Shown one piece after another: positions 1 to 26,053 of a stretch of 64,000 nucleotides of DNA. Position 1 is the stretch's first letter. Each line of letters starts with the position of its first letter. Source of the stretch: Polyangiales bacterium (GTDB lineage: Bacteria > Myxococcota_A > Polyangia > Polyangiales > Houyiibacteriaceae); the NCBI GenBank assembly GCA_965227405.1, contig OZ245758.1, forward strand, positions 2,996,338-3,060,337, in the 5' to 3' direction. Made by a program: the position numbers and the translations under genes. The notes beneath the pieces were generated by a model. The model was not told the DNA's origin, made no database searches, and saw only the letters and a program-made list of their open reading frames with translations.

Positions 1-333
1 CTCGAAAGCGATCTCAAGAAGATGCACAAGCTCATGCGTAAGTGGTCCACGGACAAGGATATGTGGAAGCGGCGTACGAGCATCTTGTGTCAGCTGAAGC
101 TCAAGGACCGCTTGGATACGAAGCTACTTGTCGACTGCATGAAGCCGTCGATGGAGAGCAAAGAGTTCTTTTTGCGCAAAGCGATCGGGTGGGCGTTGCG
201 AAGCCACTCCTACGTCGACCCCGATTGGGTCATCGCGTACGTGAACAAACACGCGAACGTTCTGAGCGGTCTGAGCAAGCGAGAGGGGTTCAAGGCGTTG
301 ATGCGCAACGGAGTGGTCAAAGCGATCCCTTGA
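1..333 (+). CDS. DNA alkylation repair enzyme (AlkD/AlkC-like HEAT-repeat DNA glycosylase), C-terminal fragment; 5' end lies upstream of the window
   Basis: Frame 1 is open from position 1. The C-terminal sequence ...EFFLRKAIGWALRSHSYVDPDWV...LSGLSKREGFKAL matches the conserved end of the DNA alkylation repair enzyme family (B. cereus AlkD type). Stop TGA at 331-333. Confidence 0.6.
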   Translation, partial: LESDLKKMHKLMRKWSTDKDMWKRRTSILCQLKLKDRLDTKLLVDCMKPSMESKEFFLRKAIGWALRSHSYVDPDWVIAYVNKHANVLSGLSKREGFKALMRNGVVKAIP

Positions 334-353: not shown

Positions 354-1994
354 ATGCTGTGCCGCGTGAAGGGGACGCTCGCACTGTGTGTGCTGGTGTG
401 GGGGTGCACGGATGCGCGCTCAAACGCAGGGGCGGAGTGCGCGCGCAACAGTCAGTGCGCGGCACCTCTCGTCTGCGCGCTTGAACGCTGTCGCAACGAA
501 TGCAACCAGTCGCGCGATTGCCCGGTCGGCTCAAGTTGTGTTCGCAGCGAGTTGGGATTCGGTGTGTGCCTCCTGCAAGACGAAACCAGCTGCGGCAGCG
601 ACAACGATTGTGCCGGTGCACTTGTGTGTGCATTGAGCCGCTGCACATCGCGATGCGGTGATGGGTGCGCGCCAGGGACAGAGTGTCGAGACGACGCGTG
701 TTTCGATCCCGCCATGGATACGTCGTGTTCCCGCGATGGCGAGTGTACGGAGGGGGTGTGCGTCGCTGGCCGCTGTCGTGCGGAGTGTCGGTCGAATCGT
801 GACTGTCGCTTTGGCGGAAGCTGCATCGATGGGCGTTGTGGTGGTTCGGCCCCCGCGGACGCGATGGTCCCCCTGGACGTGCCGCGTTCCGACAGCGGCG
901 TCGTCGATCCTTTTTGTCCCGCACGGACTGCCGACGTTGTGGACATCTGTACATCCAAGGAGTTCAGCCAGCACACGTGTGCAGCTCTTTCCGATGGACG
1001 GGTCGCCTGTTGGGGAAACAACAGCGCACTCAAACTTGGTTCCGCCGGTCTTCCGCGCGGTGCGATCTTCAGCCCCGCACTTGTCGACGGAATCGACAAC
1101 GCGGTGGGTGTGGCATGTGCACCGTGGGGATCGTGTGCGGTTCTCGCGGACGGCCGACTGACGTGTTGGGGTGTCAACACGTTAGGCCAGACAGGAACCG
1201 GATCACCCTCCAACCAAGTCGTCACACCCTTGGATGTGCCCACGTTGACGAACGTGGTCGATGTCTCGCTGCATGCTGAAGGCGGCTGTGCACTCGATGG
1301 CACCCAAGTGTACTGCTGGGGCACCAACGACGTGGGCCAGTTGGGTACCGCCGGCGGAAGCACCCGCAGTCCCGTCCTCGCGACAGACCTTCCGCCAGCG
1401 ACGGCGGTGTCCATCTCGGAAGGCCGGTTTCTGGGACAGACGCACGGGTATGTGGTCACCACGGACGGCGACCTTGTTGCATTTGGTGGAAACCCATTTC
1501 CCGAGGCTGTCGATCTCTCGATTTCGGGGAGTGATCTCATCGATGTCGCGGCGGGTGAGCAGCACGTGTGCGTGTTGCGTAGTGGCGGAGAGGTGCTTTG
1601 CGCAGGAGACAACTTCTACGGCCAGATCGGTGTCTCGGATGCGACAGGGTCCGAGTTCACGAGCGTGGTTGGACTTGAGGGGGTGACCGCGATCCGAGCT
1701 CGCTCCAGTGCGAACTGCGTCATCACTCCGACAGAGGGGCTCTGCTGGGGCGACAACACTTTCGGCGCGCTTGGCGTTGGCGAAATGACTGGCAACCAAC
1801 GCACGCCTGCGCCTGTGACACTGCCGGGTTCAGGGCCGCCGACCGTGCTCGAGTCTGGCCATCAATACGGCTGCGCGATCTACGCTGGTGTGCCCTATTG
1901 CTTCGGTCACAACGATGCATTCGCGGCGCTCGGCCTTGGGCCTGATCCGAGGGACACCTTCGAACCCACGACACCGGTGATCTGCTTGCCATGA
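354..1994 (+). CDS. Lipoprotein with N-terminal cysteine-rich module and RCC1 beta-propeller repeats (paralogue 1 of 5)
   Basis: Signal peptide MLCRVKGTLALCVLVWGC (lipobox-like). Cys-rich module C-x5-C-x3-PLVC-x4-C-x3-C-x4-DCPxGxxC repeated. Several RCC1-type blades (...CWGxNxxGQLG...). An alternative in-frame ATG at 333 overlaps the stop of the upstream gene. Confidence 0.75.
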   Translation: MLCRVKGTLALCVLVWGCTDARSNAGAECARNSQCAAPLVCALERCRNECNQSRDCPVGSSCVRSELGFGVCLLQDETSCGSDNDCAGALVCALSRCTSRCGDGCAPGTECRDDACFDPAMDTSCSRDGECTEGVCVAGRCRAECRSNRDCRFGGSCIDGRCGGSAPADAMVPLDVPRSDSGVVDPFCPARTADVVDICTSKEFSQHTCAALSDGRVACWGNNSALKLGSAGLPRGAIFSPALVDGIDNAVGVACAPWGSCAVLADGRLTCWGVNTLGQTGTGSPSNQVVTPLDVPTLTNVVDVSLHAEGGCALDGTQVYCWGTNDVGQLGTAGGSTRSPVLATDLPPATAVSISEGRFLGQTHGYVVTTDGDLVAFGGNPFPEAVDLSISGSDLIDVAAGEQHVCVLRSGGEVLCAGDNFYGQIGVSDATGSEFTSVVGLEGVTAIRARSSANCVITPTEGLCWGDNTFGALGVGEMTGNQRTPAPVTLPGSGPPTVLESGHQYGCAIYAGVPYCFGHNDAFAALGLGPDPRDTFEPTTPVICLP

Positions 1995-3577
1995 TGCGCG
2001 TGATTCCAGTGTTGGTCTTGTTGCTGGGATGCGCCGACGAGCCACTCGGTCTTGCATCCGAGTGTTCACGCACAAGTCAGTGCGACCAGCCCTTGGTGTG
2101 TCGTCTCGAGGCGTGTCGGAATGATTGCGCATCAGCACGCGACTGCCCGGTGGGCTCGGTGTGTCTACTCGACGAAAGCGGATTCGGTGCGTGTCGACTA
2201 CGCGAAGAATCCAGCTGTGATGATTGTCCGGCGACGCTTTCGTGTATCGATGGCCAATGCACCAACGCATGTACAACGGATACGGACTGCGCGCCGGGTA
2301 ACGCGTGTGAGGCCGGCGGGTGCGCGGCCGCCGACTTGCCCTGTTTGACCGACGTTGACTGTCCCGGTGGGGTATGCACGGAAGGAACGTGTACGTTGGA
2401 GTGCATCTCCGATCGCGATTGTCGGTTCGGCGGGCGTTGTCTCGATGGAACATGCACCGAAACCGATGCGTCCGTTCCGACAGACACGCCTACACCGATC
2501 GACTCGATGACGCCTGACTCCGGCGGTCGTGAATTCATACCGGTCACAGGTGCCTCCGCCGTTGCCGCAGGTTTCGGATTTACCTGCGCCGTTATCGAAG
2601 GTGACGTTCATTGCTGGGGGGGTCTGCCGCCGTTTGGAATGGCCCCTTTCACGCGAAACGAGCGCGGCGTATGCCCGCCATTCGAAGGTGCAACGGCTCA
2701 AGACGTGGTCACCTCATCACATCATTTCTGCGCGCTCGTCGATGACTCGCTTCGGTGCGGCGGCGACAACCGCTTCGGTGAATGTGGAGACGGTACAACC
2801 GACGAACCCGCGGGCTTGGTCGACGCCATGCTCACCCCGGTCACCGCTGTATCCACAGGTGGAGACATGTCGGGTGCTGGCCACACCTGTGGGATTTCGG
2901 GGGGCGAGGTCTATTGTTGGGGTTTCAACTTAACCGGTTTGCTGGGCGACGGAACGATGACGGCGTCGTTGACACCTGTCGCGACCGGATTCACCAACGC
3001 GGTTGCCGTTGCGGCCGGGACCGATGCGACGTGCGCCACCAACGCCGCGGGCGAACTTTGGTGTTGGGGAGGGAGTGCTCCTGCGCCAGCGGCGGGGGCG
3101 TTGGTGCCAACTCAGGTTCCCACGCTCGGACCGGTGGTTAGCGTTTCCTTGTCCAATGGGACGCTGGGTCCAGGCACGGTTGGCTGCATCGTAACGATGG
3201 ACGGCCGGCCATTCTGTTGGACACCCACCGGCTCACTTACTCCGGTGGTGACAGCGGACTCATTCATCGACGTGAGCGCTGGCTCGGGCCACTACTGCTT
3301 CGTTCGAACGGATCGCACAGTGACGTGTTTTGGCTTCAACCGTGCGGGGCAATTGGGCATTGGCATGGGTCTCGACAGCGCGCCGCTCGGAACGAGTGTT
3401 GTCACGGATGTCGGCGTTCTCACAGGTGTTGTCGATATCAGTGCGGGTTGGGAACACACCTGCGCCGTGACCGATGTGGGTGACGTCTACTGCTGGGGCA
3501 GTAACGAGTACGGTCAGCTTGGACACAGCGGTCGAGCTTCATCGACTTTTGCGAGGAGAGTGACGTGCGCGCGTTGA
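1991..3577 (+). CDS. Cys-rich module + RCC1-repeat lipoprotein (paralogue 2)
   Basis: Start ATG overlaps the previous stop (ATGA). Signal peptide MMRVIPVLVLLLGC. Same Cys-rich module (CSRTSQCDQPLVCRLEACRNDCASARDCPVGSVC) followed by RCC1 repeats (HCWGG, YCWGFNLTGLLG, WCWGG, YCWGSNEYGQLG). Confidence 0.75.
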   Translation: MMRVIPVLVLLLGCADEPLGLASECSRTSQCDQPLVCRLEACRNDCASARDCPVGSVCLLDESGFGACRLREESSCDDCPATLSCIDGQCTNACTTDTDCAPGNACEAGGCAAADLPCLTDVDCPGGVCTEGTCTLECISDRDCRFGGRCLDGTCTETDASVPTDTPTPIDSMTPDSGGREFIPVTGASAVAAGFGFTCAVIEGDVHCWGGLPPFGMAPFTRNERGVCPPFEGATAQDVVTSSHHFCALVDDSLRCGGDNRFGECGDGTTDEPAGLVDAMLTPVTAVSTGGDMSGAGHTCGISGGEVYCWGFNLTGLLGDGTMTASLTPVATGFTNAVAVAAGTDATCATNAAGELWCWGGSAPAPAAGALVPTQVPTLGPVVSVSLSNGTLGPGTVGCIVTMDGRPFCWTPTGSLTPVVTADSFIDVSAGSGHYCFVRTDRTVTCFGFNRAGQLGIGMGLDSAPLGTSVVTDVGVLTGVVDISAGWEHTCAVTDVGDVYCWGSNEYGQLGHSGRASSTFARRVTCAR

Positions 3578-4110
3578 TAGTTCTTCTACTCGTGGTTTCC
3601 GCGGGATGCCTCGAAACGAAAACCGCCCGCGGTGGACAGTGCTCACTCACGAGTGATTGCGATGCGCCGTTGATCTGTCGGTTCGAAGCGTGTCGCGTGG
3701 AATGCACGACCAACCGCGACTGCGCACTTGGACTCGATTGTCTGTACGACGAAAACCAACTCGGTGCGTGTCAGCTTCCCGAAGAAGCGTCCTGTATGGA
3801 CAACAACAACTGCGGGGAAGGTCAGATCTGCGCAGTGCGTGATGATGGTCGCGCGCAAACGTGCACCACCGAGTGTGGACCGGACCGCGCGTGTCCTCCT
3901 GGTGCTACGTGTACCGACGGTGCGTGTCTGGACCCCGACGACCAGCCATGTCTCTACAACACCGACTGTGACGACGCGAAGGCGTGTGCGTTTGACTTGA
4001 GGTGTCGCGACGAGTGCCTGACCGATGAAGACTGCCGCGCGCCGCTGACCTGCCGTGAGTTCGATACGTCGGCTGGTCTGCAGCGCTTGTGTGATGTGCT
4101 TCTGAACTGA
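3565..4110 (+). CDS. Short cysteine-rich lipoprotein (paralogue 3; Cys-rich modules only, no RCC1 domain)
   Basis: GTG start at 3565 overlapping the end of the previous gene. Signal peptide RALIVLLLVVSAGC. Two to three copies of the same Cys-rich module. Ends TGA at 4110, overlapping the next start. Confidence 0.6.
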   Translation: MRALIVLLLVVSAGCLETKTARGGQCSLTSDCDAPLICRFEACRVECTTNRDCALGLDCLYDENQLGACQLPEEASCMDNNNCGEGQICAVRDDGRAQTCTTECGPDRACPPGATCTDGACLDPDDQPCLYNTDCDDAKACAFDLRCRDECLTDEDCRAPLTCREFDTSAGLQRLCDVLLN

Positions 4111-5732
4111 TGCGCGTCCTCGTCCTCGTCCTCCTGGTCGGTTGCGTGGAAGCGCGCTCCGGTGCCGGCGCAGAATGCTCACGCAACAGTGAGTGCGCTG
4201 CACCTTTGGTCTGCGCCCTGGAGCGGTGTCGGAACGAGTGCAACAGCAGTCGAGACTGTCCGATCGGAGCATCCTGCATCCGAAGTGAATTGGACTTCGG
4301 GGTTTGCCAGCTCGATGACGAGTTGAGCTGCAGTGGCGAGTGTGCGGGTGATCTGGTGTGTGCCGAAGGTCAGTGCGTCAACTCGTGTGATGAGGGCTGC
4401 CTTCCCGGCAGCGAGTGTCGGGACGGAGGTTGTATCGAGTCGGCTGTATCGTGCGACGTCGACGCGGAGTGCTCCGAAGGTCAGGTCTGCCTCTCCGGGC
4501 GTTGCCAGCGTGAGTGTATTTCGATGCGTGATTGTCGGTTTGGCCGCTCGTGCGTGGATGGCCGCTGCGTGGTGGCGTCCATCGATGCGGGTCGAGATGT
4601 GGAGGTGCCGTTCGATGCGTCGCTGGACGCACCAGCTACAGACACAACGCCCGAGATGTTCTGCGATGCATCCGCGGTTCCAGCCATCGATGTTGCCGTG
4701 GGACGCGATCACGCGTGTGTCGTGTTAAGCACAGGCTCGGTCTACTGCTGGGGTGACAACGCACTCGGTCAGATTGGGAGCGCCGCTTTGGTGGTGGGGG
4801 TCACGGACGTTTGGTCAGCCTTTCCTGCCGACGTGAGCGATGCGCAGGAGGTGTCCGCGGGTGTTGCGCACACCTGCGTTCGTCGTGCCGATGACACCGT
4901 CGAGTGCTGGGGCGACAACACCGACGGCGGGTGTGGTGTTGGGCGAACCGACCGGATTGTGCGTGTCCCCGAGTCGATTGGGTTGCCCGGCGTGGCTCAG
5001 CTGGCGCTTGGCAGCCGCGCTTCGTGTGCTCGCGTCGGAACCACGGTCTCGTGTTGGGGGCGTCAGGTGAACAACGGTTTGGCCAACGGGGTGACGAGCG
5101 GAAATGCCTTCGCTCCGGTTGTGGCCACCGAACTGATGAATGTGCGCACCCTTGCATACGCGTATGCCGGCGGTGCTGCCTTGGACGTGAGCGGAGCACT
5201 TCGAGTCTGGGGCGACCATCATCCGGTTGCGGACACACCGGCGTACGTCTCTCCCAGCTTTACCGATGCCACGATGCTCGCGGTCGGCGCCGAGCACATC
5301 TGTTTGCTGCGATCGGACGGAAGTGTGTGGTGTGCGGGTGATAACGAGTTTGGTCAGCTGGGCGATCCATCGCGTGACACGAGTTCGGGACCCGACCTGT
5401 CTTGGACTCGGCTTCCGAGCCTGAGCGACGTGGTGCAGGTGGATGCAAGTGACAACAACACCTGTGCGCGAACGAGCACCGGGGACTTGTGGTGTTGGGG
5501 AATCAATACCAACGGTTCACTTGGTGTTGGGATGTCGGGAGTCGTCACGGAGCCGACCCAGGTCGAACTCCCAAGTGCGGCGGACGACGTGAGTGTCGGG
5601 AACGACGCCAGTTGTGCCATTGCGACAGGCTCGGTGTACTGCTGGGGCGCAAACTTGGCTGGACGGCTAGGGTTCCCGCAGACGTTCGGCTCGACAAACG
5701 AGCCAACGATCCCCGTGGAGTGCTTGCCGTGA
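4110..5732 (+). CDS. Cys-rich module + RCC1-repeat lipoprotein (paralogue 4)
   Basis: ATG at 4110 shares its A with the preceding TGA. Signal peptide MRVLVLVLLVGC. The N-terminal module is about 80% identical at protein level to paralogue 1. RCC1 blades present (YCWGDNALGQIG, ECWGDN, WCAGDNEFGQLG, YCWGANLAGRLG). Confidence 0.75.
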   Translation: MRVLVLVLLVGCVEARSGAGAECSRNSECAAPLVCALERCRNECNSSRDCPIGASCIRSELDFGVCQLDDELSCSGECAGDLVCAEGQCVNSCDEGCLPGSECRDGGCIESAVSCDVDAECSEGQVCLSGRCQRECISMRDCRFGRSCVDGRCVVASIDAGRDVEVPFDASLDAPATDTTPEMFCDASAVPAIDVAVGRDHACVVLSTGSVYCWGDNALGQIGSAALVVGVTDVWSAFPADVSDAQEVSAGVAHTCVRRADDTVECWGDNTDGGCGVGRTDRIVRVPESIGLPGVAQLALGSRASCARVGTTVSCWGRQVNNGLANGVTSGNAFAPVVATELMNVRTLAYAYAGGAALDVSGALRVWGDHHPVADTPAYVSPSFTDATMLAVGAEHICLLRSDGSVWCAGDNEFGQLGDPSRDTSSGPDLSWTRLPSLSDVVQVDASDNNTCARTSTGDLWCWGINTNGSLGVGMSGVVTEPTQVELPSAADDVSVGNDASCAIATGSVYCWGANLAGRLGFPQTFGSTNEPTIPVECLP

Positions 5733-7336
5733 CGCGGACGCAGATCGTGGTCGCATGCATTGTGCTCGGTGGATGTGCCGAGTCACCGAAGGGGCTTTCC
5801 GCGTCGTGCGATCGATCAAGTCAGTGCGACACGCCACTGGTGTGTCGGTTGGAGGTTTGTCGCAACGAATGCCGACGCTCGCGCGACTGCTCCGTTGGAT
5901 CCATCTGCTTGGTTGACGACAGTGGGTTCGGCGCGTGTCGGCTTTCCACGGAATCGGAGTGTGAACCTGGAGGCTGTCCTGCGCCGACGGTCTGTTTCGG
6001 CGGTCAGTGCCGCAACGCGTGTGTTGACGAATGTGCCGAAGGTCAATGCTTGGACGCGGATGGGAGCCCTTGTTTGGGTGGGGAGTGTGCATGTGTAGTC
6101 GAGCGACCGACGGGTTGTGTGCTTGATACTGATTGCGCATCCGGGCTCGTTTGTCGTGCTGGAACCTGTCTCGAGGAGTGCATCTCCGATCGCGATTGTG
6201 CGTTTGGAGCACGTTGTGTTGCAGGGCGCTGCGCTTCGGACGACGCGAGCACCGACGCGCCCGTCTTGGATGCATCCCTGGATGCGCGCGATGCCGGAGT
6301 TGCTGTGCTGCCGGACGTCGAAAGCGTCAGCGCAGGACAACACCACACCTGCGCCATCAGTTCAGGGATGGTGTGGTGTTGGGGGAATTTCGAGTGGGAA
6401 GTCCCTCCGTCGGTGATTCGACACTACCCCCCGCGTCCGATGGGGCTCGCAGCGACTCGTGTCGTGACCAGTCCGACCGCGCGCCACGTTTGTGCGATCG
6501 ACACGTCGGGCGGATTGCATTGTTTAGGCGTCAACACCAACGGTGTCGTCGGCGATGGATCCATGGTCACGCGGGAAACGTTCGTCGCTGTGACCGGGCT
6601 TGCATCAGACGTGCGTGATGTCGCCGTTGGGGTGAAACATACGTGTGCGATTCTCGGTGACGAGGTCTGGTGTTGGGGCAATGCGTTGGATGGCGCGTTG
6701 GGCGACGGTCGAATGAACGGGGTCGCCAATGAACCGGTCAATATCGGTTTGAACAATGCCGTCGACATCGCCGCGGGTCAGGACACAACATGCGCGGTTC
6801 GCGGAGATGGAAGCTTGTGGTGTTGGGGTTCCAACAACCGCGGCCGAAGTGGGCTCGGTGTATTGGATCGCGCACTCGTTCCGACGGAGGTTCCGCTCTC
6901 TTTTGCGGTTCGCTCAGTCGCGATGAGCCCGTTCCGGGGATGCGTCGTGGCCGAGGACGACACAGTTCACTGTTGGGGTCTCGACTTTGGCCCGCTCTTC
7001 GACCTGCGCGTGCCTACGGAAATGGTCGGTGTCCGCGCGCTCTCGGTTGCGGTTGGCTTCGCCCACATCTGCGGGGTGACTCCCGACAATCAAGCTCGTT
7101 GCTGGGGTGAAGGCTCAAGCGGGCAACTCGGACACGAGGACGCTCCTTCGTACCTCGACGTGCCCGGTGCTCTCGTGGTTGGGCTTGATGGGGTCGACGC
7201 GGTGGTTGCCGGGCATGGTCACAGTTGCGCGCGAACCTCGGGTCAACTCTGGTGCTGGGGATTCAACGATCGGGGTCAGTTGGGCGCGGGTCATCGTGCG
7301 TCCACACATGTGCCCGTTCCTGTGCTTGCCCCGTAG
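5729..7336 (+). CDS. Cys-rich module + RCC1-repeat lipoprotein (paralogue 5)
   Basis: GTG at 5729 overlaps the stop of paralogue 4 (GTGA). N-terminus VTRTQIVVACIVLGGC is a lipoprotein signal. Cys-rich module SCDRSSQCDTPLVCRLEVCRNECRRSRDCSVGSIC. RCC1 blades present (WCWGN, HCLGVNTNGVVGDG, WCWGSNNRGRSG, LWCWGFNDRGQLG). The track's 5489 start would overlap paralogue 4 in another frame and is rejected. Confidence 0.7.
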   Translation: MTRTQIVVACIVLGGCAESPKGLSASCDRSSQCDTPLVCRLEVCRNECRRSRDCSVGSICLVDDSGFGACRLSTESECEPGGCPAPTVCFGGQCRNACVDECAEGQCLDADGSPCLGGECACVVERPTGCVLDTDCASGLVCRAGTCLEECISDRDCAFGARCVAGRCASDDASTDAPVLDASLDARDAGVAVLPDVESVSAGQHHTCAISSGMVWCWGNFEWEVPPSVIRHYPPRPMGLAATRVVTSPTARHVCAIDTSGGLHCLGVNTNGVVGDGSMVTRETFVAVTGLASDVRDVAVGVKHTCAILGDEVWCWGNALDGALGDGRMNGVANEPVNIGLNNAVDIAAGQDTTCAVRGDGSLWCWGSNNRGRSGLGVLDRALVPTEVPLSFAVRSVAMSPFRGCVVAEDDTVHCWGLDFGPLFDLRVPTEMVGVRALSVAVGFAHICGVTPDNQARCWGEGSSGQLGHEDAPSYLDVPGALVVGLDGVDAVVAGHGHSCARTSGQLWCWGFNDRGQLGAGHRASTHVPVPVLAP

Positions 7337-7338
7337 GC

Positions 7339-8793
7339 TCAAAACACGAGGCGTACCGAAGCGCGCGTGGGTCCGACGTGGAGGCTCACTTCGTTGGCTG
7401 CGTCTTCGATCTCGTCGTCGCTTGCCGCGAGCAAGACCAGCGTCAGTCCTGTGGCCGAGAGCGCGAGCCCCGCGCCAAGTCCGATGTACCCCAACGCCTT
7501 CTGTAAGTTCGTTCGCTCGACAAGGTTGTTGTAGCGCTCTTGCTCCAAATCAAAGTCGAACATGTTGGGGCCATCTGGTGAGCACTCCAACGTTCCTCGG
7601 TTCTCTGGAAGCTCACAAAAGTCGAGCATGTCTTTGCGCGCTTCGTTGGCGTCCGAGTTCAAGTCGCCTCGCGCCACGAGGATCGGAACCAAGCCCGCGA
7701 TCACCAGTACACCACCGGCTCCAACAAACGCCCAACCGAGTTGTCGCCGTGATGCCGCACTTTCGCGACGCGTGGCCAACGCGGCATCGGTCCACGAGAA
7801 CTGAGGCGCAAGCTCCAACTCTTCGCCAGCTTCGATGTCCACACGTCCACGACTGGGCCGGCGTTCGGGGAGGAAGATGCGCACATCATGCGGACCGATC
7901 GGAAGTTCGACTTGTTCGCTCACATCCACCGAGCTGCCGTCGATCTCCAGTCGTTCCGGCGTGACCGGAGTGCGCAGCCGCAGTGAACCCATCACAGAAG
8001 GGTCGGCGTTTGGATCGATCTGCATGCGCAGCGTCACCTCACTGTCGACCGCGTCCTGAACCTCGACAGTCTCGCGTGTCGTTTGATAGCCCGCGCGCTG
8101 TCCTTCTACGAGATGCGCACCCGGCGAGGTTAGGTGTGTCGGAGTCATCGGTGTCGTACCAACGAACTCGCCATCCACGCGCACTTCGACGCCAGAGAGA
8201 TTGCTGCGCACGCGAATCGAACCGCGTCGCTCCAACAAAGGTCGCAAGGTCAGACGAACGAGTACCTCTTCGCCTCCCGCGACCGACACCACTTGGCGAG
8301 CAACGTCATGCCCCGTCGCGCGCGCTGACACCTCTACCGAACCGGCTTCAACGCGTAGAGGATCGACCAGTGGGGTTGTCGCGCGGTCGACGCCTCCAAT
8401 CATGATCACCGCACCTTGGACGTTGACTTCGACTCGCACCGAACCGATCTGATCGCGCAGTCGACTCAACGAACGATCGATCTCGCGCCGTTCCCGACGA
8501 GAAATTCGTCCTGCATCGTTGAGGTAGTGCTCGTAAAAACTGACAGCCTCGACAGGGTGGTCGAGACGTTCGTGCACACGTGCGAGGTTGTAGAGAACGG
8601 CTGGATCCGGTGCGAGGTCATATGCCGCGCGAAACTCAGCAAGCGCTTGTTCGTAGTCGCCCGCGTCGTAACGCGTCATGCCGCGTTCGATGTGTGCCGC
8701 TGCCGTTTCGGTGTTCGGTTGCGCCGCCACGATGCTCGGCTGTGCCGCGACGGTGATCGTGATCAGCAAGGCGGTGATCGCCACTCGCATCAT
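7339..8793 (-). CDS. Secreted/membrane TPR-repeat + PEGA-domain protein
   Basis: Signal peptide MMRVAITALLITITVAAQPSIVAAQ. TPR-like helices (YDAGDYEQALAEFRAAYDL...YNLARVHERL). PEGA-type beta domains (VRVDGEFVGTTP, EVSARATGHDVARQVVSV). C-terminal hydrophobic segments. Confidence 0.6.
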   Translation of the reverse strand: MMRVAITALLITITVAAQPSIVAAQPNTETAAAHIERGMTRYDAGDYEQALAEFRAAYDLAPDPAVLYNLARVHERLDHPVEAVSFYEHYLNDAGRISRRERREIDRSLSRLRDQIGSVRVEVNVQGAVIMIGGVDRATTPLVDPLRVEAGSVEVSARATGHDVARQVVSVAGGEEVLVRLTLRPLLERRGSIRVRSNLSGVEVRVDGEFVGTTPMTPTHLTSPGAHLVEGQRAGYQTTRETVEVQDAVDSEVTLRMQIDPNADPSVMGSLRLRTPVTPERLEIDGSSVDVSEQVELPIGPHDVRIFLPERRPSRGRVDIEAGEELELAPQFSWTDAALATRRESAASRRQLGWAFVGAGGVLVIAGLVPILVARGDLNSDANEARKDMLDFCELPENRGTLECSPDGPNMFDFDLEQERYNNLVERTNLQKALGYIGLGAGLALSATGLTLVLLAASDDEIEDAANEVSLHVGPTRASVRLVF

Positions 8794-10052
8794 TGGCTGT
8801 ACCCAGGCCGCATGAGTCCATCACGCTCCGAGGGACGAAGCTTAGTCATCTGCGTGGTCATCTCGGTGGTCGGCGCAACTCGCATCTCCGTGACGGTCAT
8901 CTCCGCACTGCTGGTCATCTCCGTGATGCTCGTCATTTCGGTGCGTTCGGGTGTCGCTGCTCCGTTGGGGATGTCCGGTTCTTGCGGCTGTTCGGGTGTC
9001 GTCGGTGCAGGCGCTTCAGTTCGGGTCAGCACCCACGTGAGACCGGCACCAAGAGCCAGCGCCAAAAGTAAGGCAGGCCACCAGACACGCCGAGGGGGTG
9101 GAGCGTGCCGACTCTCCATGGTTTTGGGAATCGACGCCTCACTCGCCATCGTCGCCATGAACGCCATGGGATCGGTTCGCGCACCCACAGGCGTCAGCAC
9201 AAGTTCGGTTGCGAACTCGTCCATTGCGGCTTCGAGTTCTTCGGTGGTCTGAAAACGTGCGCCGCGGTCCAGCTGCATTGCGCGCTCGATCACGCTGGCA
9301 AGTTGGGTGTCGAGCTCGGGGTACTCGCCCGCTGCAACACACTCGCCGGTGAAGATCTTCACCAGCAGTTCGGGAAGTGACTCGGCTTCAAACGGGCGGC
9401 GACCCGTCACCATTTCGTAAAGCACCACACCCAACGCATAGATGTCGGTTCGCAGGTCAACGTTCTTGCTGTTGCGGAGCTGCTCCGGCGACATGTACAG
9501 CGGCGTTCCGAGGATCGCGCCCGTCTCGGTTGCACCCGTGAGCTCTTCGGCGTTTTCAAACTTGCTGATCCCGAAGTCGATCAGCTTGACCTTGAGATCA
9601 CCCCCCGTGTTGACCAGAAAGATGTTCTCAGGCTTGAGGTCGCGGTGGATGACACCGGCCTCGTGCGCGATGCGCAAACCACGACACGCCTCACGCACAA
9701 CCGCACACGCCAAACCCGCCGGTAGCTTTCCGCGTGCGTCGAGGACCTCGCGTAGCGAGTCGCCCTCAAGCATCTCCATCAACACGTAAAACGAACCGTC
9801 TTCGAGCTGTCCTGCGTCAAAGATCTGAGTGATGTAGTCGGTGTCCAGAGTGCCGGCGACAGACGCCTCTTGAAGGAAACGCTTGATGATCGTCGCGTTT
9901 GCTTCACGCGGGGTCATCACCTTCAGTGCGCGCCGATGTTTCGTGAGCGTATGGCGCACCTCGTACACAACACCCATGCCGCCTGCGCCGAGCACGCGAA
10001 TAATCTCGAGTTTGCCGTCGAGAAAAGTGTCCCCGGCCTTCTTAGGCAGCAT
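8790..10052 (-). CDS. Serine/threonine protein kinase (Hanks-type)
   Basis: Kinase subdomains: G-loop LGAGGMGVVYEV, VAIK-like ALKVM, HRDLKPENIFL, DFG, SPEQ. C-terminal TM segment and Pro/Thr-rich tail. Start chosen at MLPKKAGD (ATG 10052). The longer upstream ORF extension would overlap the divergent EamA gene. Confidence 0.7.
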   Translation of the reverse strand: MLPKKAGDTFLDGKLEIIRVLGAGGMGVVYEVRHTLTKHRRALKVMTPREANATIIKRFLQEASVAGTLDTDYITQIFDAGQLEDGSFYVLMEMLEGDSLREVLDARGKLPAGLACAVVREACRGLRIAHEAGVIHRDLKPENIFLVNTGGDLKVKLIDFGISKFENAEELTGATETGAILGTPLYMSPEQLRNSKNVDLRTDIYALGVVLYEMVTGRRPFEAESLPELLVKIFTGECVAAGEYPELDTQLASVIERAMQLDRGARFQTTEELEAAMDEFATELVLTPVGARTDPMAFMATMASEASIPKTMESRHAPPPRRVWWPALLLALALGAGLTWVLTRTEAPAPTTPEQPQEPDIPNGAATPERTEMTSITEMTSSAEMTVTEMRVAPTTEMTTQMTKLRPSERDGLMRPGYSQ

Positions 10053-10944
10053 GCGCAGGGAGTATATCCTCCGCGTCGTGAAGCGCCGCGATTCCGACTC
10101 CGATTCCAAAAGGAACCGTGCGCGAATCGCAGTTGTCGTGGGCGTTGCCGCGATCAGCTTCGCAGCGATCTTCTTTCGCAAGACCGCACCCATGCATCCG
10201 CTTGTTGCCGCGGGTCTGCGTTTGTCGATCGCGGCAGTGTGCTTGTCGCCTTTCATCGTTCGTGCGTGGAAGGGCATGTCCCGCTCGGTGCGCATCGGCG
10301 CATGTGTGGGCGGGTTGTTCTACGCCGCGCACTTCGGAACGTGGGTGACCTCGCTGACGCTGACGAGTGTCGCCGCGTCGGTCACGTTGGTCACGGCGAC
10401 ACCCATTTTGTTGGCGACGTGGGCGTTCATCACCGGAACGGACAAACCGAGCAAGCTCCAACTTGGCGCGATCGCGATTGCCGTAGTGGGAGTCACCGTG
10501 ATCGGGTCACAGGACTCCGGTGGAGCGATCGTGGGCGATGCGTTGGCGTTTGCGGGTGCAGCAGCGATGGCGGGCTACTTAGTGATCGCGCGTCGACAAG
10601 GTGATCACTTGAACCCGATGGCGTTTACAGGTCTCGCATGCGCGGTGGGCGGTGCACTGCTCTTGTTAAGCACCGTTGTCTTTGAGGTGCCGCTCGAGAT
10701 CCCATCGATGGAGAGCTTCGGGTTTGTGCTTTTGGCGGTCGCCGTTCCGCAGTTGATTGGTCACACCGCGATGACCTACGCGCTTCGGGTGCTTTCACCG
10801 ACGCGGGTGGGCATGGCCACGGTTGCAGAGCCGGTCGGAGCGACGTTGCTCGCGTGGCTGTGGCTCACGGAAACACCTCCGTTGCTTACGCTGGTGGGTT
10901 GCGGGATTACGTTGAGCGCGGTGCTGCTCTCACTGCGCGAGTAG
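10051..10944 (+). CDS. EamA/DMT-family transporter (10 TM)
   Basis: Hydrophobic profile of two EamA repeats (IAVVVGVAAISFAAIFF..., ...LSAVLLSLRE). The start is uncertain: ATG 10051 overlaps the kinase start codon on the other strand; an in-frame GTG at 10078 is an alternative. Confidence 0.6.
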   Translation: MRREYILRVVKRRDSDSDSKRNRARIAVVVGVAAISFAAIFFRKTAPMHPLVAAGLRLSIAAVCLSPFIVRAWKGMSRSVRIGACVGGLFYAAHFGTWVTSLTLTSVAASVTLVTATPILLATWAFITGTDKPSKLQLGAIAIAVVGVTVIGSQDSGGAIVGDALAFAGAAAMAGYLVIARRQGDHLNPMAFTGLACAVGGALLLLSTVVFEVPLEIPSMESFGFVLLAVAVPQLIGHTAMTYALRVLSPTRVGMATVAEPVGATLLAWLWLTETPPLLTLVGCGITLSAVLLSLRE

Positions 10945-10951
10945 CTGTGCC

Positions 10952-12082
10952 CTAAATCGGAGCTTCGCAGATGTTCCGCGCGATCAGCTCGGCGATGCTC
11001 TGCAGCACAGGTCGTAGATCGGGCTGACAGATGCTCGCCAAAAAGCCATTCCCGGTTCGGCCGAAGTCTTGAACGACCTCGACAATGCGTCGTGCAGGCG
11101 GAGCAGAACCCACGCCGCCAAACTCGCACGCGGGAACAAGCTGCGTGTCGTCGTCAGGATCCAACGTGAACTGCATGCGCTCGTCGGCCAGCACTTCCGC
11201 GAAATCGACGTCGGTGGGATCCGGCGTCAGGTTGCGCGGAACACCGGTGATCGCAGCGACGATGACAGGTGCGTTTCGATCCAACTCCAGCGCGTGGAAC
11301 GCGTTCAGGTAGCGCGAGATCGGATGCAGGAACGAATCGTTGAACGCACATCGCGTTCGGAAGTGCCCCAACTCTGTGCGCGCGTCCGCCGAAGGATCAA
11401 AAATCGCGTCGTCGGCTGCGGAGCAATCGTCCTCATCAGTGACATAGACGATGGCGACAAGTGAATCGCCGCGAAGAAAACCTTCGTTGGGCGCGCCGGG
11501 TTCGGCTTGGGTTGTGATCGCGGACAACGAGGCTTCGAGTTGCTGTTCGAGTCCACAACCGTTGGTACCCAGTTCCGACAAACACGCGAAGTCATCGTTG
11601 AACTGAGTCGCGTTGTCGCCGTCGAACTGTAACCAGGGCGGGTCACCGAGCGATGTCCCGCAGCCTGAACGCGCATCGCTGACAAACACGCCATCATCGC
11701 CGTTACCCGGTGGGCACCCGATGACTCCGGGGTTGTCGCCCACGCCCATGTCCGTCGTCACGATTCCGATGCGCAAGTCTGTGATCGGTTCGAAATCGGG
11801 GAACCCGTCACCATCCGCGTCGGGCGGCGTGGTGAGTGTCTCGATCAACACCGGAAAGTTCTCGGCCAGTGAAGCCTGTTCCTCCGCCATCGAGTTCGAG
11901 TTGTCGATGACCCAAATCATGTCGACCGGAAGTGCAGCGCGGCACATGCGATCGCCAACGTCGAACCCTGGGACATCGCGTTGCGCGTCGATGCCCGTGT
12001 CGCCGGTGGCGGCGTCCATCGGGTCGTCGTCTCCACAATCGCAGGCCGTCAACGCGAGCACGAGCAAAGCGAAGTAGCGCAT
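10952..12082 (-). CDS. von Willebrand factor A (VWA)-domain lipoprotein
   Basis: Start at MRYFALLVLALTAC (lipobox LTAC). MIDAS motif DxSxS in IWVIDNSNSMAEEQ. Asp/Gly-rich acidic segments. Confidence 0.5.
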   Translation of the reverse strand: MRYFALLVLALTACDCGDDDPMDAATGDTGIDAQRDVPGFDVGDRMCRAALPVDMIWVIDNSNSMAEEQASLAENFPVLIETLTTPPDADGDGFPDFEPITDLRIGIVTTDMGVGDNPGVIGCPPGNGDDGVFVSDARSGCGTSLGDPPWLQFDGDNATQFNDDFACLSELGTNGCGLEQQLEASLSAITTQAEPGAPNEGFLRGDSLVAIVYVTDEDDCSAADDAIFDPSADARTELGHFRTRCAFNDSFLHPISRYLNAFHALELDRNAPVIVAAITGVPRNLTPDPTDVDFAEVLADERMQFTLDPDDDTQLVPACEFGGVGSAPPARRIVEVVQDFGRTGNGFLASICQPDLRPVLQSIAELIARNICEAPI

Positions 12083-12086
12083 ACGC

Positions 12087-12632
12087 TTAGGGTACTCGAT
12101 CAGCCGGGGAGTCCCAGTCACGGAGACGCGTCGCATCGATTTCAAACGCCGCGACCTCGCAGCGATCCAAGAGCCCGCGCAACGATCGGCGACCTGTTTG
12201 CAGATATGCTTCGAACTTGGGTTGAACGCTCGGCGCGTAGCGCGCGAACAAAGGCTCCCAATCGTTCGCATCAAGCGCACGAGGCGCGACCACGTCAACG
12301 TTGCGCGGGTCGGCACCCAAACGTCGAAGGTCTTCCGCTTCGATGTAGGGCATGTCGCACCCCACCACGATGACGGGCTCGGGCCCCAAGAGTGCGGCGA
12401 GACCCCCGATCGGTCCGGCATCGGCCATGCCATCGTCGATGCGCGCCACGTCGGGTAACAACGAGGCGTACTCGTGAGCTTTGCCGACCAGAACCGGGTC
12501 GAGACCAGCTTCTCGCGCCACTCGAACCGTTCGCTCGAGCAAGCGCTCTGCGCCTACGTTCAGCAGTCCTTTCGGCGTTCCCATCCGAGAAGAGGCGCCA
12601 CCGACCAAGATTCCGAGTCTCACGAGAAACAA
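12087..12632 (-). CDS. mobA: Molybdenum cofactor guanylyltransferase
   Basis: N-terminal signature LVGGASSRMGTPKGLL and the VVGCDMP motif typical of MobA. 181 aa. Confidence 0.7.
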   Translation of the reverse strand: MFLVRLGILVGGASSRMGTPKGLLNVGAERLLERTVRVAREAGLDPVLVGKAHEYASLLPDVARIDDGMADAGPIGGLAALLGPEPVIVVGCDMPYIEAEDLRRLGADPRNVDVVAPRALDANDWEPLFARYAPSVQPKFEAYLQTGRRSLRGLLDRCEVAAFEIDATRLRDWDSPADRVP

Positions 12633-12680: not shown

Positions 12681-13244
12681 GTGGCAGTGAGGGGTTGGAT
12701 TGGCTTGATGATGCTGGCGCTGGCGTTGGCCTGTGGGTCTGATGACGCACAGTCCAATGAACGGGTCGAGCAGCGCGCTAGCGTGATTCCTGATCTCGAG
12801 CCTGCACCCGAAAGTCCCGACCCGGTGTACAGCCCGTTCGTGGTGCAGATGAGCACCGACGAAACTCCGTTCAGCGTGATCTCGTTCAAAGACGTCGGCA
12901 TGTCTTTGTCGTCTGACGAACAGCAACACGTGTACGAGACGATTGCCGAAGGTCTCGCGCTCGAGTTCGGTTCGCGCATGCAACACGATCCGCACTCGGC
13001 CGACCCCTCGAACCATCTCGCGTGTGAAGGTGAGCACGTGTACGTCGACATGTGGCAGTCCGGTTCCGGCTGGGGGTACTCGTTGTGGTCCGGGTGTGGC
13101 GAAGATGATCAGTTCGCGCATCGTGAAGTCGAAGTCGCGATCGAACCCGACAACCGCGTCGCATCGATCCAGTCGCTGACTGACGACATCGCTCAAGAGT
13201 TGCGCCGCGCAGTGCGCGAAAACTGTTTCACCCGCCACTGCTAA
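12681..13244 (+). CDS. Hypothetical lipoprotein
   Basis: Signal peptide MAVRGWIGLMMLALALAC (lipobox). No recognisable domain. Acidic. Confidence 0.45.
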   Translation: MAVRGWIGLMMLALALACGSDDAQSNERVEQRASVIPDLEPAPESPDPVYSPFVVQMSTDETPFSVISFKDVGMSLSSDEQQHVYETIAEGLALEFGSRMQHDPHSADPSNHLACEGEHVYVDMWQSGSGWGYSLWSGCGEDDQFAHREVEVAIEPDNRVASIQSLTDDIAQELRRAVRENCFTRHC

Positions 13245-13322
13245 ATCGCGTAGCCAGCTTCGCGGTTGAGCGGATTTCCGTAGCGATTACGCGTTGGCAC
13301 AAAACTGGCCACTTGACCGGGT

Positions 13323-14468
13323 ATGTACCCGTTGCTCTTGGTTCTCGCCTCGCTCTGGACGCTGCTTGGTGTCGTCGCGATCGCGCGCGTTCGTCAACGC
13401 AAGCTCGACGACGATGCCCCCGCGATCGCGGTGTCCGTGCTCAAGCCCTTGTGTGGATTGGACGCGTCGCTCGAAGCCAATCTCGTCAGTTTCTTTGAGC
13501 AGGATCACCCCCGCTTTGAGTTGGTGTTCGGCGTGGAGGGTGATGACCCCGCGATCGAACTCGTGCGTAAGCTACAAGCGCGCTACCCCGAGGTTCGTAC
13601 TCGCTTGGTGATTCACGAGGGCGGTCGCGCGCTCAACCCCAAGGTGCGCAACCTCTTGGCGATGTTGCCTGAGGCATCGCACGACCTCGTGCTGATCAGC
13701 GACTCCAACGTGGTGGTTCCGCAGCACTACCTGCGCGAGATGTCCGTGGCGATGCACGATCCGACCGTCGGTATTGCGACGAACTTGATCACGGCTGTGT
13801 CGAACGATGATTCCCTCGGCGCTACGCTCGAAGAGATGCACCTGGGCGGCATGGTTGCTGGGAGCATTGCACTGTCGAACGAGGCGGGGCACGCCGCGGT
13901 GATCGGCAAGTCGATGATGTTTCGTCGGTCGGTGATCGACGCGTTGGGCGGGCTCGAGAGCGTCGCGTACGTGTTGGCCGAGGACTACGTGCTTGGTCGT
14001 ATGGTTCAGGCGGCGGGGCTTCGCGTGCATGTTTGCGCCACGCCGATTCATAACGTGATCGGAACTCAATCCGTTCGCCGCTTTGTGGATCGCCACGTGC
14101 GCTGGAGCATGATGCGCTTGCGACTCGCACCCTGGGCATACTTGCTTGAGCCGTTCGCGACGCCGTTGTGTGTGGCGCTACTCGCACCCGTGTTCGGGTT
14201 TCCGCTTCGTGTCGCGTTGATGTGGGCTCTGGGTCTGACCCTTGTGCGCGATGCTGCTCATGAGTGGCTCCTGCGTGGTCCGGGTCGACTTGTGCGCATG
14301 TTGCCTCTCGCACCCCTGCGCGATCTGATTGTGCTCTGGGTGTGGTTGATCGCGCCTTTTCGACGTCACGTGACCTGGCGGCAGACCCGAGTTCGCGTCT
14401 CGGCTGGAACTCGCCTTTACGCCCAGGACGCGAGCGAACCGAACACGAGCCTGTTGATGGAAGGCTAA
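13323..14468 (+). CDS. Membrane glycosyltransferase, GT2/GT21 (ceramide glucosyltransferase / HpnI-like)
   Basis: N-terminal TM. VLKPLCGLD motif. Aspartate motifs. (Q/R)xxRW motif in VDRHVRWSMMRL. C-terminal TM helices. Confidence 0.5.
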   Translation: MYPLLLVLASLWTLLGVVAIARVRQRKLDDDAPAIAVSVLKPLCGLDASLEANLVSFFEQDHPRFELVFGVEGDDPAIELVRKLQARYPEVRTRLVIHEGGRALNPKVRNLLAMLPEASHDLVLISDSNVVVPQHYLREMSVAMHDPTVGIATNLITAVSNDDSLGATLEEMHLGGMVAGSIALSNEAGHAAVIGKSMMFRRSVIDALGGLESVAYVLAEDYVLGRMVQAAGLRVHVCATPIHNVIGTQSVRRFVDRHVRWSMMRLRLAPWAYLLEPFATPLCVALLAPVFGFPLRVALMWALGLTLVRDAAHEWLLRGPGRLVRMLPLAPLRDLIVLWVWLIAPFRRHVTWRQTRVRVSAGTRLYAQDASEPNTSLLMEG

Positions 14469-14486
14469 CGCGCATACCATCCGGCT

Positions 14487-15482
14487 ATGGCCGACGACGA
14501 AGAGACGTCCTCCGAGGAAGAGTCATCCGACGAAGAGACCTCATCGGAGGAAACGTCATCCGAAGACACGTCCACCGAGCAAGAGTCATCCAACGCGGAT
14601 GATGCGGCCGACGACGCGGATGATGATGCGGCCGACGCGGATGATGACGACGACGTTCTCGACGGCGACGACGATGAAAGTGTTCTTGAAGGCGACGATG
14701 AGCTCGACGCCAACGAGAAGGCAATGCTCGACGACCTGGACGACGACCTCGATGACGGGGACGACGACGACGAGGACGACGAGGTCAGCGAAGACGAGAT
14801 CGCAGAGCCGATCAAACCGATCAGCGAGAAGGAGCAACGCCGTGCGGGCTGGGGCTGCTTGATTCTGTTGATCGCGATTCCACTCGGCGTTTGGTACGGA
14901 GCTCAGAGTTGGCTGGCGAGTGCACTCGAACTGGACCAAAGCGGCGTGCCCGATTGGTACCTCGAAGCTTCGCAGGACGACGCCGGACCTCGAACCGCAA
15001 CCGGCAGCTTTGTGCCACCGGCTGACGAGGTGGAGTGGCTCACCGATCCCGAAGCGGCGGTGAACCAAGCACAAGAGAGCGAAGATCCCCTCATCGTAAT
15101 GTTCTCGTCGGACAACGAAGAGAGCCAACGAATGAACAGCGGCACGTGGCTCAACCGCAACGTCGTGCGGATGCTGCAAGACACGGTGCCCTTGCGTTTG
15201 GAGCTCGGCGACGAGTCGCATGACTGGGCCGAGCGCTTCGAGGTGACGCGCGCGCCGACCATTCTCTTTCTCTCGCCCGACTTGGAGCGACTGAGGCCCG
15301 ATACAGCTCGCTTGGTCGACGCGAACGACATGGAGATCTACCTCTACGAAACCCAGGAAAATCTGGAGGAAGAGCGCGTGTACCAGCCTGCCGATGGCGA
15401 GGCGGAGGGGCTGCTGCCGGATGAAACCGAGGATGCCGAAGACGAGCCTGAGCCTGAACAGACGCCCTCCGAAGGCGAATGA
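14487..15482 (+). CDS. Highly acidic single-pass membrane protein with thioredoxin-fold-like domain lacking CxxC
   Basis: N-terminal D/E/S low-complexity region (about 110 aa). TM GWGCLILLIAIPLGVWYGAQSWL. A domain resembling the thioredoxin-like fold (LIVMFSSDNEES...APTILFL) without redox cysteines. Acidic C-terminus. Confidence 0.5.
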   Translation: MADDEETSSEEESSDEETSSEETSSEDTSTEQESSNADDAADDADDDAADADDDDDVLDGDDDESVLEGDDELDANEKAMLDDLDDDLDDGDDDDEDDEVSEDEIAEPIKPISEKEQRRAGWGCLILLIAIPLGVWYGAQSWLASALELDQSGVPDWYLEASQDDAGPRTATGSFVPPADEVEWLTDPEAAVNQAQESEDPLIVMFSSDNEESQRMNSGTWLNRNVVRMLQDTVPLRLELGDESHDWAERFEVTRAPTILFLSPDLERLRPDTARLVDANDMEIYLYETQENLEEERVYQPADGEAEGLLPDETEDAEDEPEPEQTPSEGE

Positions 15483-25411: not shown

Positions 25412-26053
25412 ATGAGCGACCCCATTGCCTTCCTCAAAGACACCTTTCCTGCCCTCTTCAACAAAGGCGTAGCTGGGCTCGAAGCCAAAGCTGCGGGAGG
25501 TCACGAGAAAGCCGGCAAGATCCTCGCGGACGTGAAAGGCGCGTCCGGAAACGTTGTGCTCGTCGTCGAAGGCGAGGGCGAGGTCTACATGAGTTTTGGC
25601 GACGGCAAGATGGAAGCCGTCGATGCGAAGCCGACCGACAACGTGAAGCTGGCCGTTGCTGCTCCGGCGGCTGCGGTGAAGATGCTGTTGGGCGAAGCCG
25701 AAAAAGAAGGCGAGCTCGAAGAGGACAAAGCGGCGAAGCGCGCAGCACGAACGGTGTCGAAGCGCATGCAAGACGCGTTGGGCGACCAGTCGTTGCTCTT
25801 TCACATCGTGATCGAGAACGTGCCCGAGCAGGGAACCGTTGCCGTGAAGATCGGACTCAACGCGCCTGAGCCTCCTGAAGAGCCGAAGTTTAAAGCGACG
25901 ATTGCGTTCGAAGACTTGGAAGCCGCGCGCAACGGCGAAGTGAACCCGCAGATGTTGTTCATGGGCGGGAAGCTGCGTATGGAAGGCGACTATTCAGCGG
26001 CGCTGCAACTCGGTATGCAGCTGATGACGCAAGCGCAGCAAGACGGCTTCTAG
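25412..26053 (+). CDS. SCP2 sterol-carrier/lipid-binding domain protein
   Basis: C-terminal signature MLFMGGKLRMEGDYSAALQLGMQL typical of the SCP-2 family. Confidence 0.6.
   Translation: MSDPIAFLKDTFPALFNKGVAGLEAKAAGGHEKAGKILADVKGASGNVVLVVEGEGEVYMSFGDGKMEAVDAKPTDNVKLAVAAPAAAVKMLLGEAEKEGELEEDKAAKRAARTVSKRMQDALGDQSLLFHIVIENVPEQGTVAVKIGLNAPEPPEEPKFKATIAFEDLEAARNGEVNPQMLFMGGKLRMEGDYSAALQLGMQLMTQAQQDGF

Follow-up and report, generated by a model that had tools for sequence, protein, structure and literature searches.

Seven-bladed propellers built from RCC1 repeats, with the blade motif CWGxNxxGQLG, are found in RCC1, UVR8, RPGR and the RCC1-like domains (RLDs) of HERC1/2, which are cytoplasmic or nuclear eukaryotic proteins with roles such as Ran guanine-nucleotide exchange factor (GEF), UV-B receptor or ubiquitin-ligase module. 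A bacterial seven-bladed propeller of the RCC1-like kind is BLIP-II of Streptomyces exfoliatus (PDB 1jtd, 3qi0), which is secreted and acts purely as a tight protein binder. In Myxococcus xanthus, the RCC1 repeat protein MXAN_0889 was detected only in outer membrane vesicles (PMC4158809). By analogy, these two bacterial proteins provide precedents for exported RCC1-type propellers that may act as binders. Receptor Ser/Thr kinases of the PknB/PASTA type have their extracellular sensors built in. Here we describe a locus in a 64-kb stretch of contig OZ245758.1 of a Polyangiales bacterium (the window, 64,000 nt in full), in which five consecutive genes, g1 to g5, encode predicted lipoproteins with a Cys-rich stalk, four of them carrying an RCC1-type propeller head, next to genes for a Hanks-type Ser/Thr kinase (STK) and a TPR/PEGA protein.

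Our best reading of the region, drawn from sequence comparison, is a five-gene operon of exported lipoproteins. We tentatively propose, with a confidence somewhat short of even, that these disulfide-rich proteins bind ligands via their propellers and work together with the neighbouring kinase pair. The heads share blade number and blade motif with the eukaryotic RLDs, but the window proteins differ from them in predicted export and lipidation, in Cys pairs within the blades and in the fused disulfide-rich stalk. BLIP-II, in contrast, is a soluble single domain of ~270 aa, without lipid anchor, Cys-rich stalk, paralogous array or kinase neighbour. MXAN_0889, which we liken to the window proteins by description and not by sequence, is a myxobacterial exported RCC1 propeller and thereby a precedent for an extracellular location, but it is not reported to have a stalk, an array or a kinase link. 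With the PknB/PASTA type, the window kinase shares a membrane Hanks-type kinase, a single transmembrane helix and a tie to extracytoplasmic ligand-binding domains; it differs in its 77-aa low-complexity tail and in that its candidate sensors are separate lipoproteins and the TPR/PEGA protein, linked to it by gene neighbourhood. Exported propeller lipoproteins of bacteria appear to be of a known kind, and the conserved kinase link, partly tested below, appears to be new.

The gene array and its propeller heads

The five ORFs (open reading frames) lie in a row on the forward strand at 354-7336 and are all intact, in agreement with an earlier reading of the window that used the DNA letters and their translations only (the sequence-only reading). 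That reading also placed an overlap at every junction, and all four stop/start sequences bear this out: ATGA at 1991-1994 between g1 and g2 (the g2 start being ATG 1991 or ATG 1994), TGATG at 4108-4112 between g3 and g4, GTGA at 5729-5732 between g4 and g5, and, between g2 and g3, a GTG start at 3565, 13 nt ahead of the TGA at 3575-3577, with a GAGGAG 6 nt upstream. The proposal made there of paralogous lipoprotein genes coupled tightly in a single same-strand array is supported. The alternative start suggested for g1 does exist as an ATG at 333 that overlaps the stop of the upstream AlkD-type gene, but ATG 354 is the likelier start, because the g1 orthologues in L004 and L008 start ~24 nt past the alkD stop (L001 to L036 are the labels of the relatives' loci that were fetched for comparison with the window). 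The AlkD-type gene is probably context and not part of the system; it adjoins the array only in L004 and L008, the closest relatives, and not in L001 or L007. A scan for sigma-70-like promoters found none, and terminator-like sites were fewer than in shuffles, both results being uninformative for this phylum.

The sequence-only reading had named a collapsed or duplicated repeat as what would undo the array. The array is instead real by our checks: a search for long repeats failed to find any, the longest DNA repeat between paralogues being 57 nt at 79% identity, and the five-gene order is identical in the independent assemblies L004 and L008. That the array arose in assembly, or consists of duplicates in decay, is hardly credible given that the paralogues are only 29-63% identical, their ORFs are intact, their Cys residues and lipobox are invariant and the nonsynonymous divergence (dN) of g3 is low. 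No further family members were found in the rest of the window.

The N-termini of all five proteins consist of a basic and a hydrophobic stretch that closes in a lipobox-type x-x-G-C (LVWGC, LLLGC, VSAGC, LLVGC and VLGGC). The lipobox Cys is invariant across 21 aligned family members, which upholds the lipoprotein signal that had been noticed on each protein. A PROSITE-type lipobox rule is matched by g2, g3 and g5, and a lipobox is present in 131 of the 150 best family cluster representatives. Lys stands at position +2 in none of the five proteins, and g3 carries Ala at +7; in M. xanthus, Lys at +2 is an inner-membrane lipoprotein signal and Ala at +7 is associated with matrix export (PMC3222651). 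From these signals we infer that the proteins would be lipidated and sorted beyond the inner membrane, to the outer membrane or the surface.

Pfam searches identified RCC1_2 (PF13540; 84-132 bits, cut-off 22) and RCC1 (PF00415; 62-101 bits, cut-off 21.7) in g1, g2, g4 and g5, and WD40_RLD (PF25390) above its 150-bit cut-off in g4 (172.7 bits) and g5 only. Searched by sequence against the PDB, g4 matched UVR8, HERC, RPGR and RCC1 at 1e-16 to 1e-21. The AlphaFold2 (AF2) model of g4, with a mean predicted local distance difference test (pLDDT) of 83.3 and values >90 over most of aa 190-520, has seven blades of ~4 strands each, a stalk of lower confidence and, between them, a disordered linker (pLDDT ~40). 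In our best reading, each stalk is followed by such a flexible linker of ~25 residues. Foldseek aligned this model with UVR8 at a template modelling score (TM) of 0.82 over ~374 columns, with HERC2 (0.76), RCC1 (0.71) and BLIP-II (0.74-0.78), and also matched RPGR. This propeller model was made for g4 only, and the blades of g1, g2 and g5 were counted by seven C-x8/9-C or degenerate motifs, g5 having seven C-x8/9-C pairs. The Pfam, PDB, AF2 and Foldseek results thus agree with the four seven-blade RCC1-type propellers recognized earlier.

In an alignment of 38 sequences, six of the seven blades keep their Cys pair without exception, and each stalk-propeller protein contains at least 40 Cys. 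Together with the export and lipidation signals, these Cys make an extracytoplasmic binding role more plausible than a Ran-GEF role, as had been suggested. Guanine-nucleotide exchange on a Ran-type GTPase is unlikely for the window propellers, because the proteins are predicted to be exported and are Cys-rich; we know of no Ran-type partner in bacteria. Outside the stalk, the number of Cys in the mature protein is odd in g2 (17) and g4 (15) and even in g1 (16) and g5 (14). The odd number in g2 and g4 may leave a free thiol or give rise to an intermolecular disulfide.

The Cys-rich stalk and its family

Every one of the five proteins, g3 included, has a stalk of 24 Cys (26 in g5) in three 8-Cys modules, with the spacing C-x5-C-x5-C-x4-C-x3-C-x5-C-x5-C-x4..9-C repeated three times, and not the one to three copies of the module given by the sequence-only reading. 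The three modules are mutually homologous (HHalign probability 97-99%, E 1e-11 to 1e-16), and the 24 Cys are fully or almost fully conserved across 21 family members, presumably pairing into 12 stalk disulfides per protein. The Cys motif described earlier is indeed present, once per protein and in module 1, but with x2 instead of x3 before PLVC; in its corrected strict form it reads C-x5-C-x2-PL[VI]C-x4-C-x3-C-x4-DC-x2-G-x2-C. Its supposed likeness to the TIGR02232-type Myxococcus cysteine-rich repeat was not recovered, as none of the five proteins gave a match at E <= 0.01. Membership in TIGR04201 (Myxo_Cys_RPT) was rejected as well, with g5 alone reaching 19.2 bits (E 9.4e-4, one 22-aa stretch) against a cut-off of 25.

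The modules of DUF7107, Dickkopf_N and TIGR04201 are, like those of the window stalk, ~48 aa long with 8 Cys, but the window stalks fall below every curated cut-off. For DUF7107 (PF23416; cut-off 24.6 bits), g3 reached 23.3 bits and g2 18.7 bits, and the Pfam search found no match to Dickkopf_N (PF04706) in the window proteins. Relatives found with the stalk profile do pass: for DUF7107, P0138 (277 bits, 8 copies, 3.5e-84) and one L023 protein (26.3 bits); for Dickkopf_N (cut-off 25 bits), P0175 (30.7 bits) and a 527-aa protein of L003 (28 bits). A relative is annotated in one NCBI record as 'Dickkopf N-terminal cysteine-rich domain-containing protein'. These profile matches suggest that the stalk is likely a divergent relative of the DUF7107/Dickkopf_N modules, homologous at the level of the superfamily. 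To our knowledge, no function is known for DUF7107. Dickkopf antagonizes Wnt in metazoans, and these matches show no parallel in function between it and the window stalks.

The BLIP-II match of the g4 model, weak WAP and Dickkopf_N Pfam matches in relatives and an alpha-2-macroglobulin-like gene 8 kb off would fit envelope-anchored inhibitors directed at own or foreign hydrolases, in which BLIP-II-like propellers are combined with Cys modules of the WAP or Dickkopf/colipase type. We regard such a role as improbable. BLIP-II resembles all RCC1-like propellers equally, and higher scores are reached by UVR8, HERC2 and RCC1; the adjacent CC pair of the WAP four-disulfide core, which we rejected as an identity for the stalk, is absent; no window protein reaches the WAP or Dickkopf_N threshold; and the examined neighbourhoods have no conserved gene for a protease or beta-lactamase.

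Other relatives are proteins of 800-2900 aa with 5-15 stalk units in tandem, and some have Dumpy_DPY Pfam matches, with a PDB profile search giving Dumpy at E 0.05. This raises the alternative that the proteins are structural parts of the envelope or extracellular matrix whose stalk modules form rods or fibres like the EGF-DPY repeats of Dumpy, and the Ala at +7 of g3 is the matrix-sorting residue of M. xanthus. Against it, the number of modules in the window proteins is only three, with a globular head added, the resemblance to DPY is marginal, and neither the diversity of the propellers nor the kinase neighbourhood would be explained. We consider a structural role quite improbable, slightly more so than that of inhibitors.

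To delimit the family, a word-indexed search with g3 gave 17 proteins, from Myxococcota and Sandaracinaceae metagenome-assembled genomes (MAGs), and an exhaustive search with a stalk-alignment profile gave 3475 cluster representatives at E <= 1e-3, 1485 at <= 1e-10 and 174 at <= 1e-30. Among the best 150 representatives, 74 combine the stalk with RCC1, 28 are stalk-only, 27 are mid-sized with another C-terminal domain and 21 are long multi-stalk proteins. As relatives swap RCC1 for Kelch, FG-GAP, PD40, SBBP or right-handed beta-helix heads, the constant part of the family is, on this evidence, the stalk and not the RCC1 head. A pattern scan of one genome per species found 19 loci; those with a taxon label are all from Myxococcota (Sandaracinaceae, Polyangiaceae, Polyangiales), and one is labelled only as uncultured bacterium. 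Judged by all identified members, the family is restricted to Polyangia-type Myxococcota. Its members are mostly named hypothetical in the source records, with "RCC1 family" and "Dickkopf N-terminal cysteine-rich" also occurring, and the stalk profile defines a sizeable unannotated family. Our literature search found no paper describing the stalk, the stalk-propeller fusion, the arrays or the kinase neighbourhood, and nothing on DUF7107, on RCC1 in Sandaracinus or on PEGA with a kinase in Myxococcus.

Identity among the paralogues of the array is 34-63% for the stalk and 29-38% for the propeller. The closest paralogue of g1 is g4 (63% stalk, 34% propeller) and that of g2 is g5 (52% stalk, 38% propeller). 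The C-termini of g1 (...PVICLP) and g4 (...PVECLP) end in C-L-P and a stop codon that overlaps the following ATG or GTG at g1/g2 and g4/g5, an arrangement kept in L001, L004, L007 and L008, and MAG GCA_039186435.1 has g1-g2 as a unit on one contig and g3-g4-g5 as a unit on another. By these comparisons the array is composed of two A-B pairs (g1-g2 and g4-g5) plus the stalk-only g3. Because the 4-nt stop/start overlap is conserved within each pair, synthesis of A and B is predicted to be coupled and roughly equimolar, and we infer that the two may be made in equal amounts and act as a pair.

All comparisons show saturated synonymous sites (pS 0.66-0.78, dS ~1.6 to infinity), so that dN/dS is unusable among paralogues and orthologues and only dN can be read. 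Between the window and L004, dN is lowest in the cluster for g3 (0.16), followed by the PEGA neighbour and the g1 stalk (0.18 each), the g4 stalk (0.33), the g1 propeller (0.35) and the g4 propeller (0.56). By this measure the propeller heads change at two to three times the rate of the stalk-only g3, whose orthologues are 73-91% identical and of equal length.

The kinase and TPR/PEGA neighbourhood

The gene of the TPR/PEGA protein is convergent with g5, 2 nt away from it, and at the other end its start and the stop of the kinase gene overlap by 4 nt. For the TPR/PEGA protein, hydropathy and Pfam analysis predict a signal peptide, then a large portion in the periplasm that contains the TPR and PEGA domains, and two hydrophobic helices at the C-terminus. 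The kinase has, by hydropathy, a cytoplasmic kinase domain and one transmembrane helix at aa 404-424, followed by the 77-aa tail, which is low-complexity, T/E/M/P-rich and with TEMT repeats; no recognisable sensor domain was found in this tail.

The conservation of this neighbourhood was analyzed by tblastn of the window kinase and PEGA protein against all fetched loci. The STK + TPR/PEGA pair is an immediate neighbour of stalk genes in the window and in L003, L004, L009, L012, L013, L021, L023, L030 and L036, and L026 has the TPR/PEGA protein only, so that, as judged by sequence similarity, stalk genes directly adjoin what appears to be one orthologous pair in ~11 distinct loci. The cluster-adjacent kinases are 41-57% identical to the window kinase (25-36% for other kinases in those loci), the TPR/PEGA orthologues adjoining stalk genes are 30-77% identical to the window protein, and in all flanks examined PEGA homologues occur only within the clusters. 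The orientation varies: the pair is convergent with the stalk genes in the window and L004, upstream on the same strand in L003, L012 and L023, downstream on the same strand in L009, L013, L030, L036 and probably L016 (a truncated locus), and divergent in L021 and, with PEGA only, L026. A metagenome scan with a four-sequence PEGA alignment yielded at least 5 loci. L030 and L036 amount to a reciprocal test, because they were retrieved with the PEGA protein, and not the stalk, as query. In L036, 4-nt overlaps connect the whole series of stalk-RCC1, stalk-only, two kinase and PEGA genes, and in the downstream arrangement the stalk-only gene directly precedes the kinase gene.

Based on these observations, we suggest the following mechanism for a joint function of the lipoproteins and the kinase pair. 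The proteins would be lipidated and disulfide-bonded in the periplasm and anchored in the envelope, at the outer membrane or surface rather than the inner membrane. Their fast-evolving propeller heads would bind extracytoplasmic ligands, and the conserved stalks may contact each other or the TPR/PEGA-kinase complex, physically or functionally, by which the sensor-less kinase could gain its input via the lipoproteins and its TPR/PEGA partner.

The same lipoproteins could also form a stand-alone binding repertoire of the surface or of vesicles, as adhesins or in the recognition of prey, polymers or kin, with the kinase pair as a bystander or co-regulated neighbour; adhesion, prey recognition and kin recognition, as suggested by the sequence-only reading, are possible functions of these propellers. 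Such a repertoire would account for the combination of lipoprotein signal, disulfide-rich stalk and propeller head, for the divergence of the heads at two to three times the pace of the stalks and the adjoining genes, for the swapping of head types among relatives, and for the roughly half of the clusters that have no adjacent PEGA/kinase pair, and it would have a counterpart in the vesicle-specific RCC1 protein of M. xanthus (PMC4158809). It fits less well with the recurrence of the STK/PEGA orthogroup in ~11 loci although the orientation is rearranged and protein identity is only 30-45%, or with the 4-nt overlaps that run from lipoprotein into kinase genes in L036. It also leaves unexplained the conserved stalk-only protein, usually encoded directly upstream of the kinase (L009, L013, L016, L030 and L036), and we consider it somewhat unlikely.

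Several observations weigh against the proposed cooperation of exported lipoproteins with the kinase pair. As to export, g1 and g4 fail the strict PROSITE-type lipobox rule (g4 on the length of the h-region), the Cys is preceded by just 11-17 residues, an unusually short signal peptide, and the M. xanthus sorting rules stem from a different class of Myxococcota. As to the kinase, ~9 clusters with adequate flanks lack the PEGA pair (e.g., L014, L017, L020, L024 and L025), and Sandaracinus amylolyticus, a cultured species, has an STK+PEGA pair without stalk genes within 10 kb. Moreover, the kinase pair of the window is on the opposite strand, so that co-transcription with the array does not apply. 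Myxobacteria carry hundreds of Hanks-type Ser/Thr kinases, many without a recognisable sensor domain, and some of the adjacency may therefore be due to chance, the ~11 loci being a count within the fetched loci.

In the S. amylolyticus locus (L034; CP011125.1, 5529709-5551175), an IS21-type element (rve + IstB) is present at 12684-15079, 1.2 kb downstream of STK+PEGA; in this genome alone the pair has no stalk genes next to it, and the locus may have been rearranged. L007 has a different kinase, of 1206 aa, plus an extracytoplasmic function (ECF) sigma factor. Kinases of a second type, marked by a PatA_N (PATAN) domain, were observed in L009 (5488-7473) and L036 (5864-7846 and 10842-12824); they accompany the STK/PEGA pair in kinase-downstream clusters and are absent from the window.

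A more far-reaching version of a lipoprotein-kinase partnership, which we think unlikely, is a split receptor-kinase system, in which swappable lipoprotein ectodomains, each with a conserved stalk of three Cys-rich modules and an exchangeable RCC1, Kelch or FG-GAP head, and a stalk-only adaptor or antagonist would pass information on extracellular ligands to the sensor-less kinase through the TPR/PEGA protein. Such a system would parallel, by analogy and at the same low level of confidence, the eukaryotic receptors that join Cys-rich modules and propellers, but with separate polypeptides, and would have evolved within Polyangia. The input signals of sensor-less myxobacterial kinases are largely unknown, and the propeller lipoprotein cluster represents a concrete candidate input. 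If the kinase link fails, what is left is a lineage-specific exported stalk-plus-propeller family, useful for annotation and biologically ordinary.

Coordinates and other genes of the window

Table 1. Positions of the array, its domains and other genes, in nt of the window.
Feature	Position	Strand	Length	Description
AlkD-type gene	22-333	+		C-terminal part, cut by the window edge; Pfam DNA_alkylation 5.7e-28
g1	354-1994	+	546 aa	A-type stalk-propeller protein, predicted lipoprotein; signal MLCRVKGTLALCVLVWGC
g1 stalk	438-839	+		aa 29-162
g1 propeller	921-1991	+		RCC1-like, from ~aa 190
g2	1991/1994-3577	+	527-528 aa	B-type stalk-propeller protein, predicted lipoprotein
g2 stalk	2063-2455	+
g2 propeller	~2546-3574	+
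g3	3565-4110	+	181 aa	Stalk-only protein without propeller, predicted lipoprotein; lipobox Cys15; AF2 pLDDT 84.7
g3 stalk	3640-4092	+		Three 8-Cys modules
g4	4110-5732	+	540 aa	A-type stalk-propeller protein, predicted lipoprotein; signal MRVLVLVLLVGC
g4 stalk	4176-4568	+
g4 linker		+		aa 157-183
g4 propeller	4677-5729	+		~aa 190-540
g5	5729-7336	+	535 aa	B-type stalk-propeller protein, predicted lipoprotein
g5 stalk	5807-6232	+
g5 propeller	~6311-7333	+
TPR + PEGA protein	7339-8793	-	484 aa	Pfam PEGA 6.7e-17, TPR_2 1.7e-9
Hanks-type Ser/Thr kinase	8790-10295	-	up to 501 aa	Pfam Pkinase 2.2e-46
Kinase tail	8790-9020	-	77 aa	aa 425-501; TEMTSITEMTSSAEMTVTEMRVAPTTEMTTQMT
ORF 10952-12433	10952-12433	-		No Pfam match; likely start MRYFALLVLALTAC...
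Thioredoxin_7 protein	14487-15482	+	331 aa
Alpha-2-macroglobulin-like protein	15633-20759	+	1708 aa	MG2, A2M, MG4
ORF overlapping the A2M-like gene end	20753-25390	+	1545 aa	Weak CarboxypepD_reg match only
bPH_2 protein	26050-27495	-		Three bacterial PH (bPH_2) domains, 5.6e-41
Major Vault Protein homologue	30998-34255	-	1085 aa	MVP_shoulder 2.8e-27, Vault_3 3.4e-10, Vault_4 4.1e-5

With the likely start given in Table 1, ORF 10952-12433 would encode another lipoprotein. A D-x-S-x-S motif (VIDNSNSM) was seen in it by eye, and L009 has a homologue of 36% identity close to its stalk/kinase cluster, beside FecR and an ECF sigma factor. The Thioredoxin_7 protein, encoded 7 kb from the array, could be relevant to oxidative folding. 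Finally, the 1085-aa ORF corresponds to a homologue of the Major Vault Protein in a bacterium.

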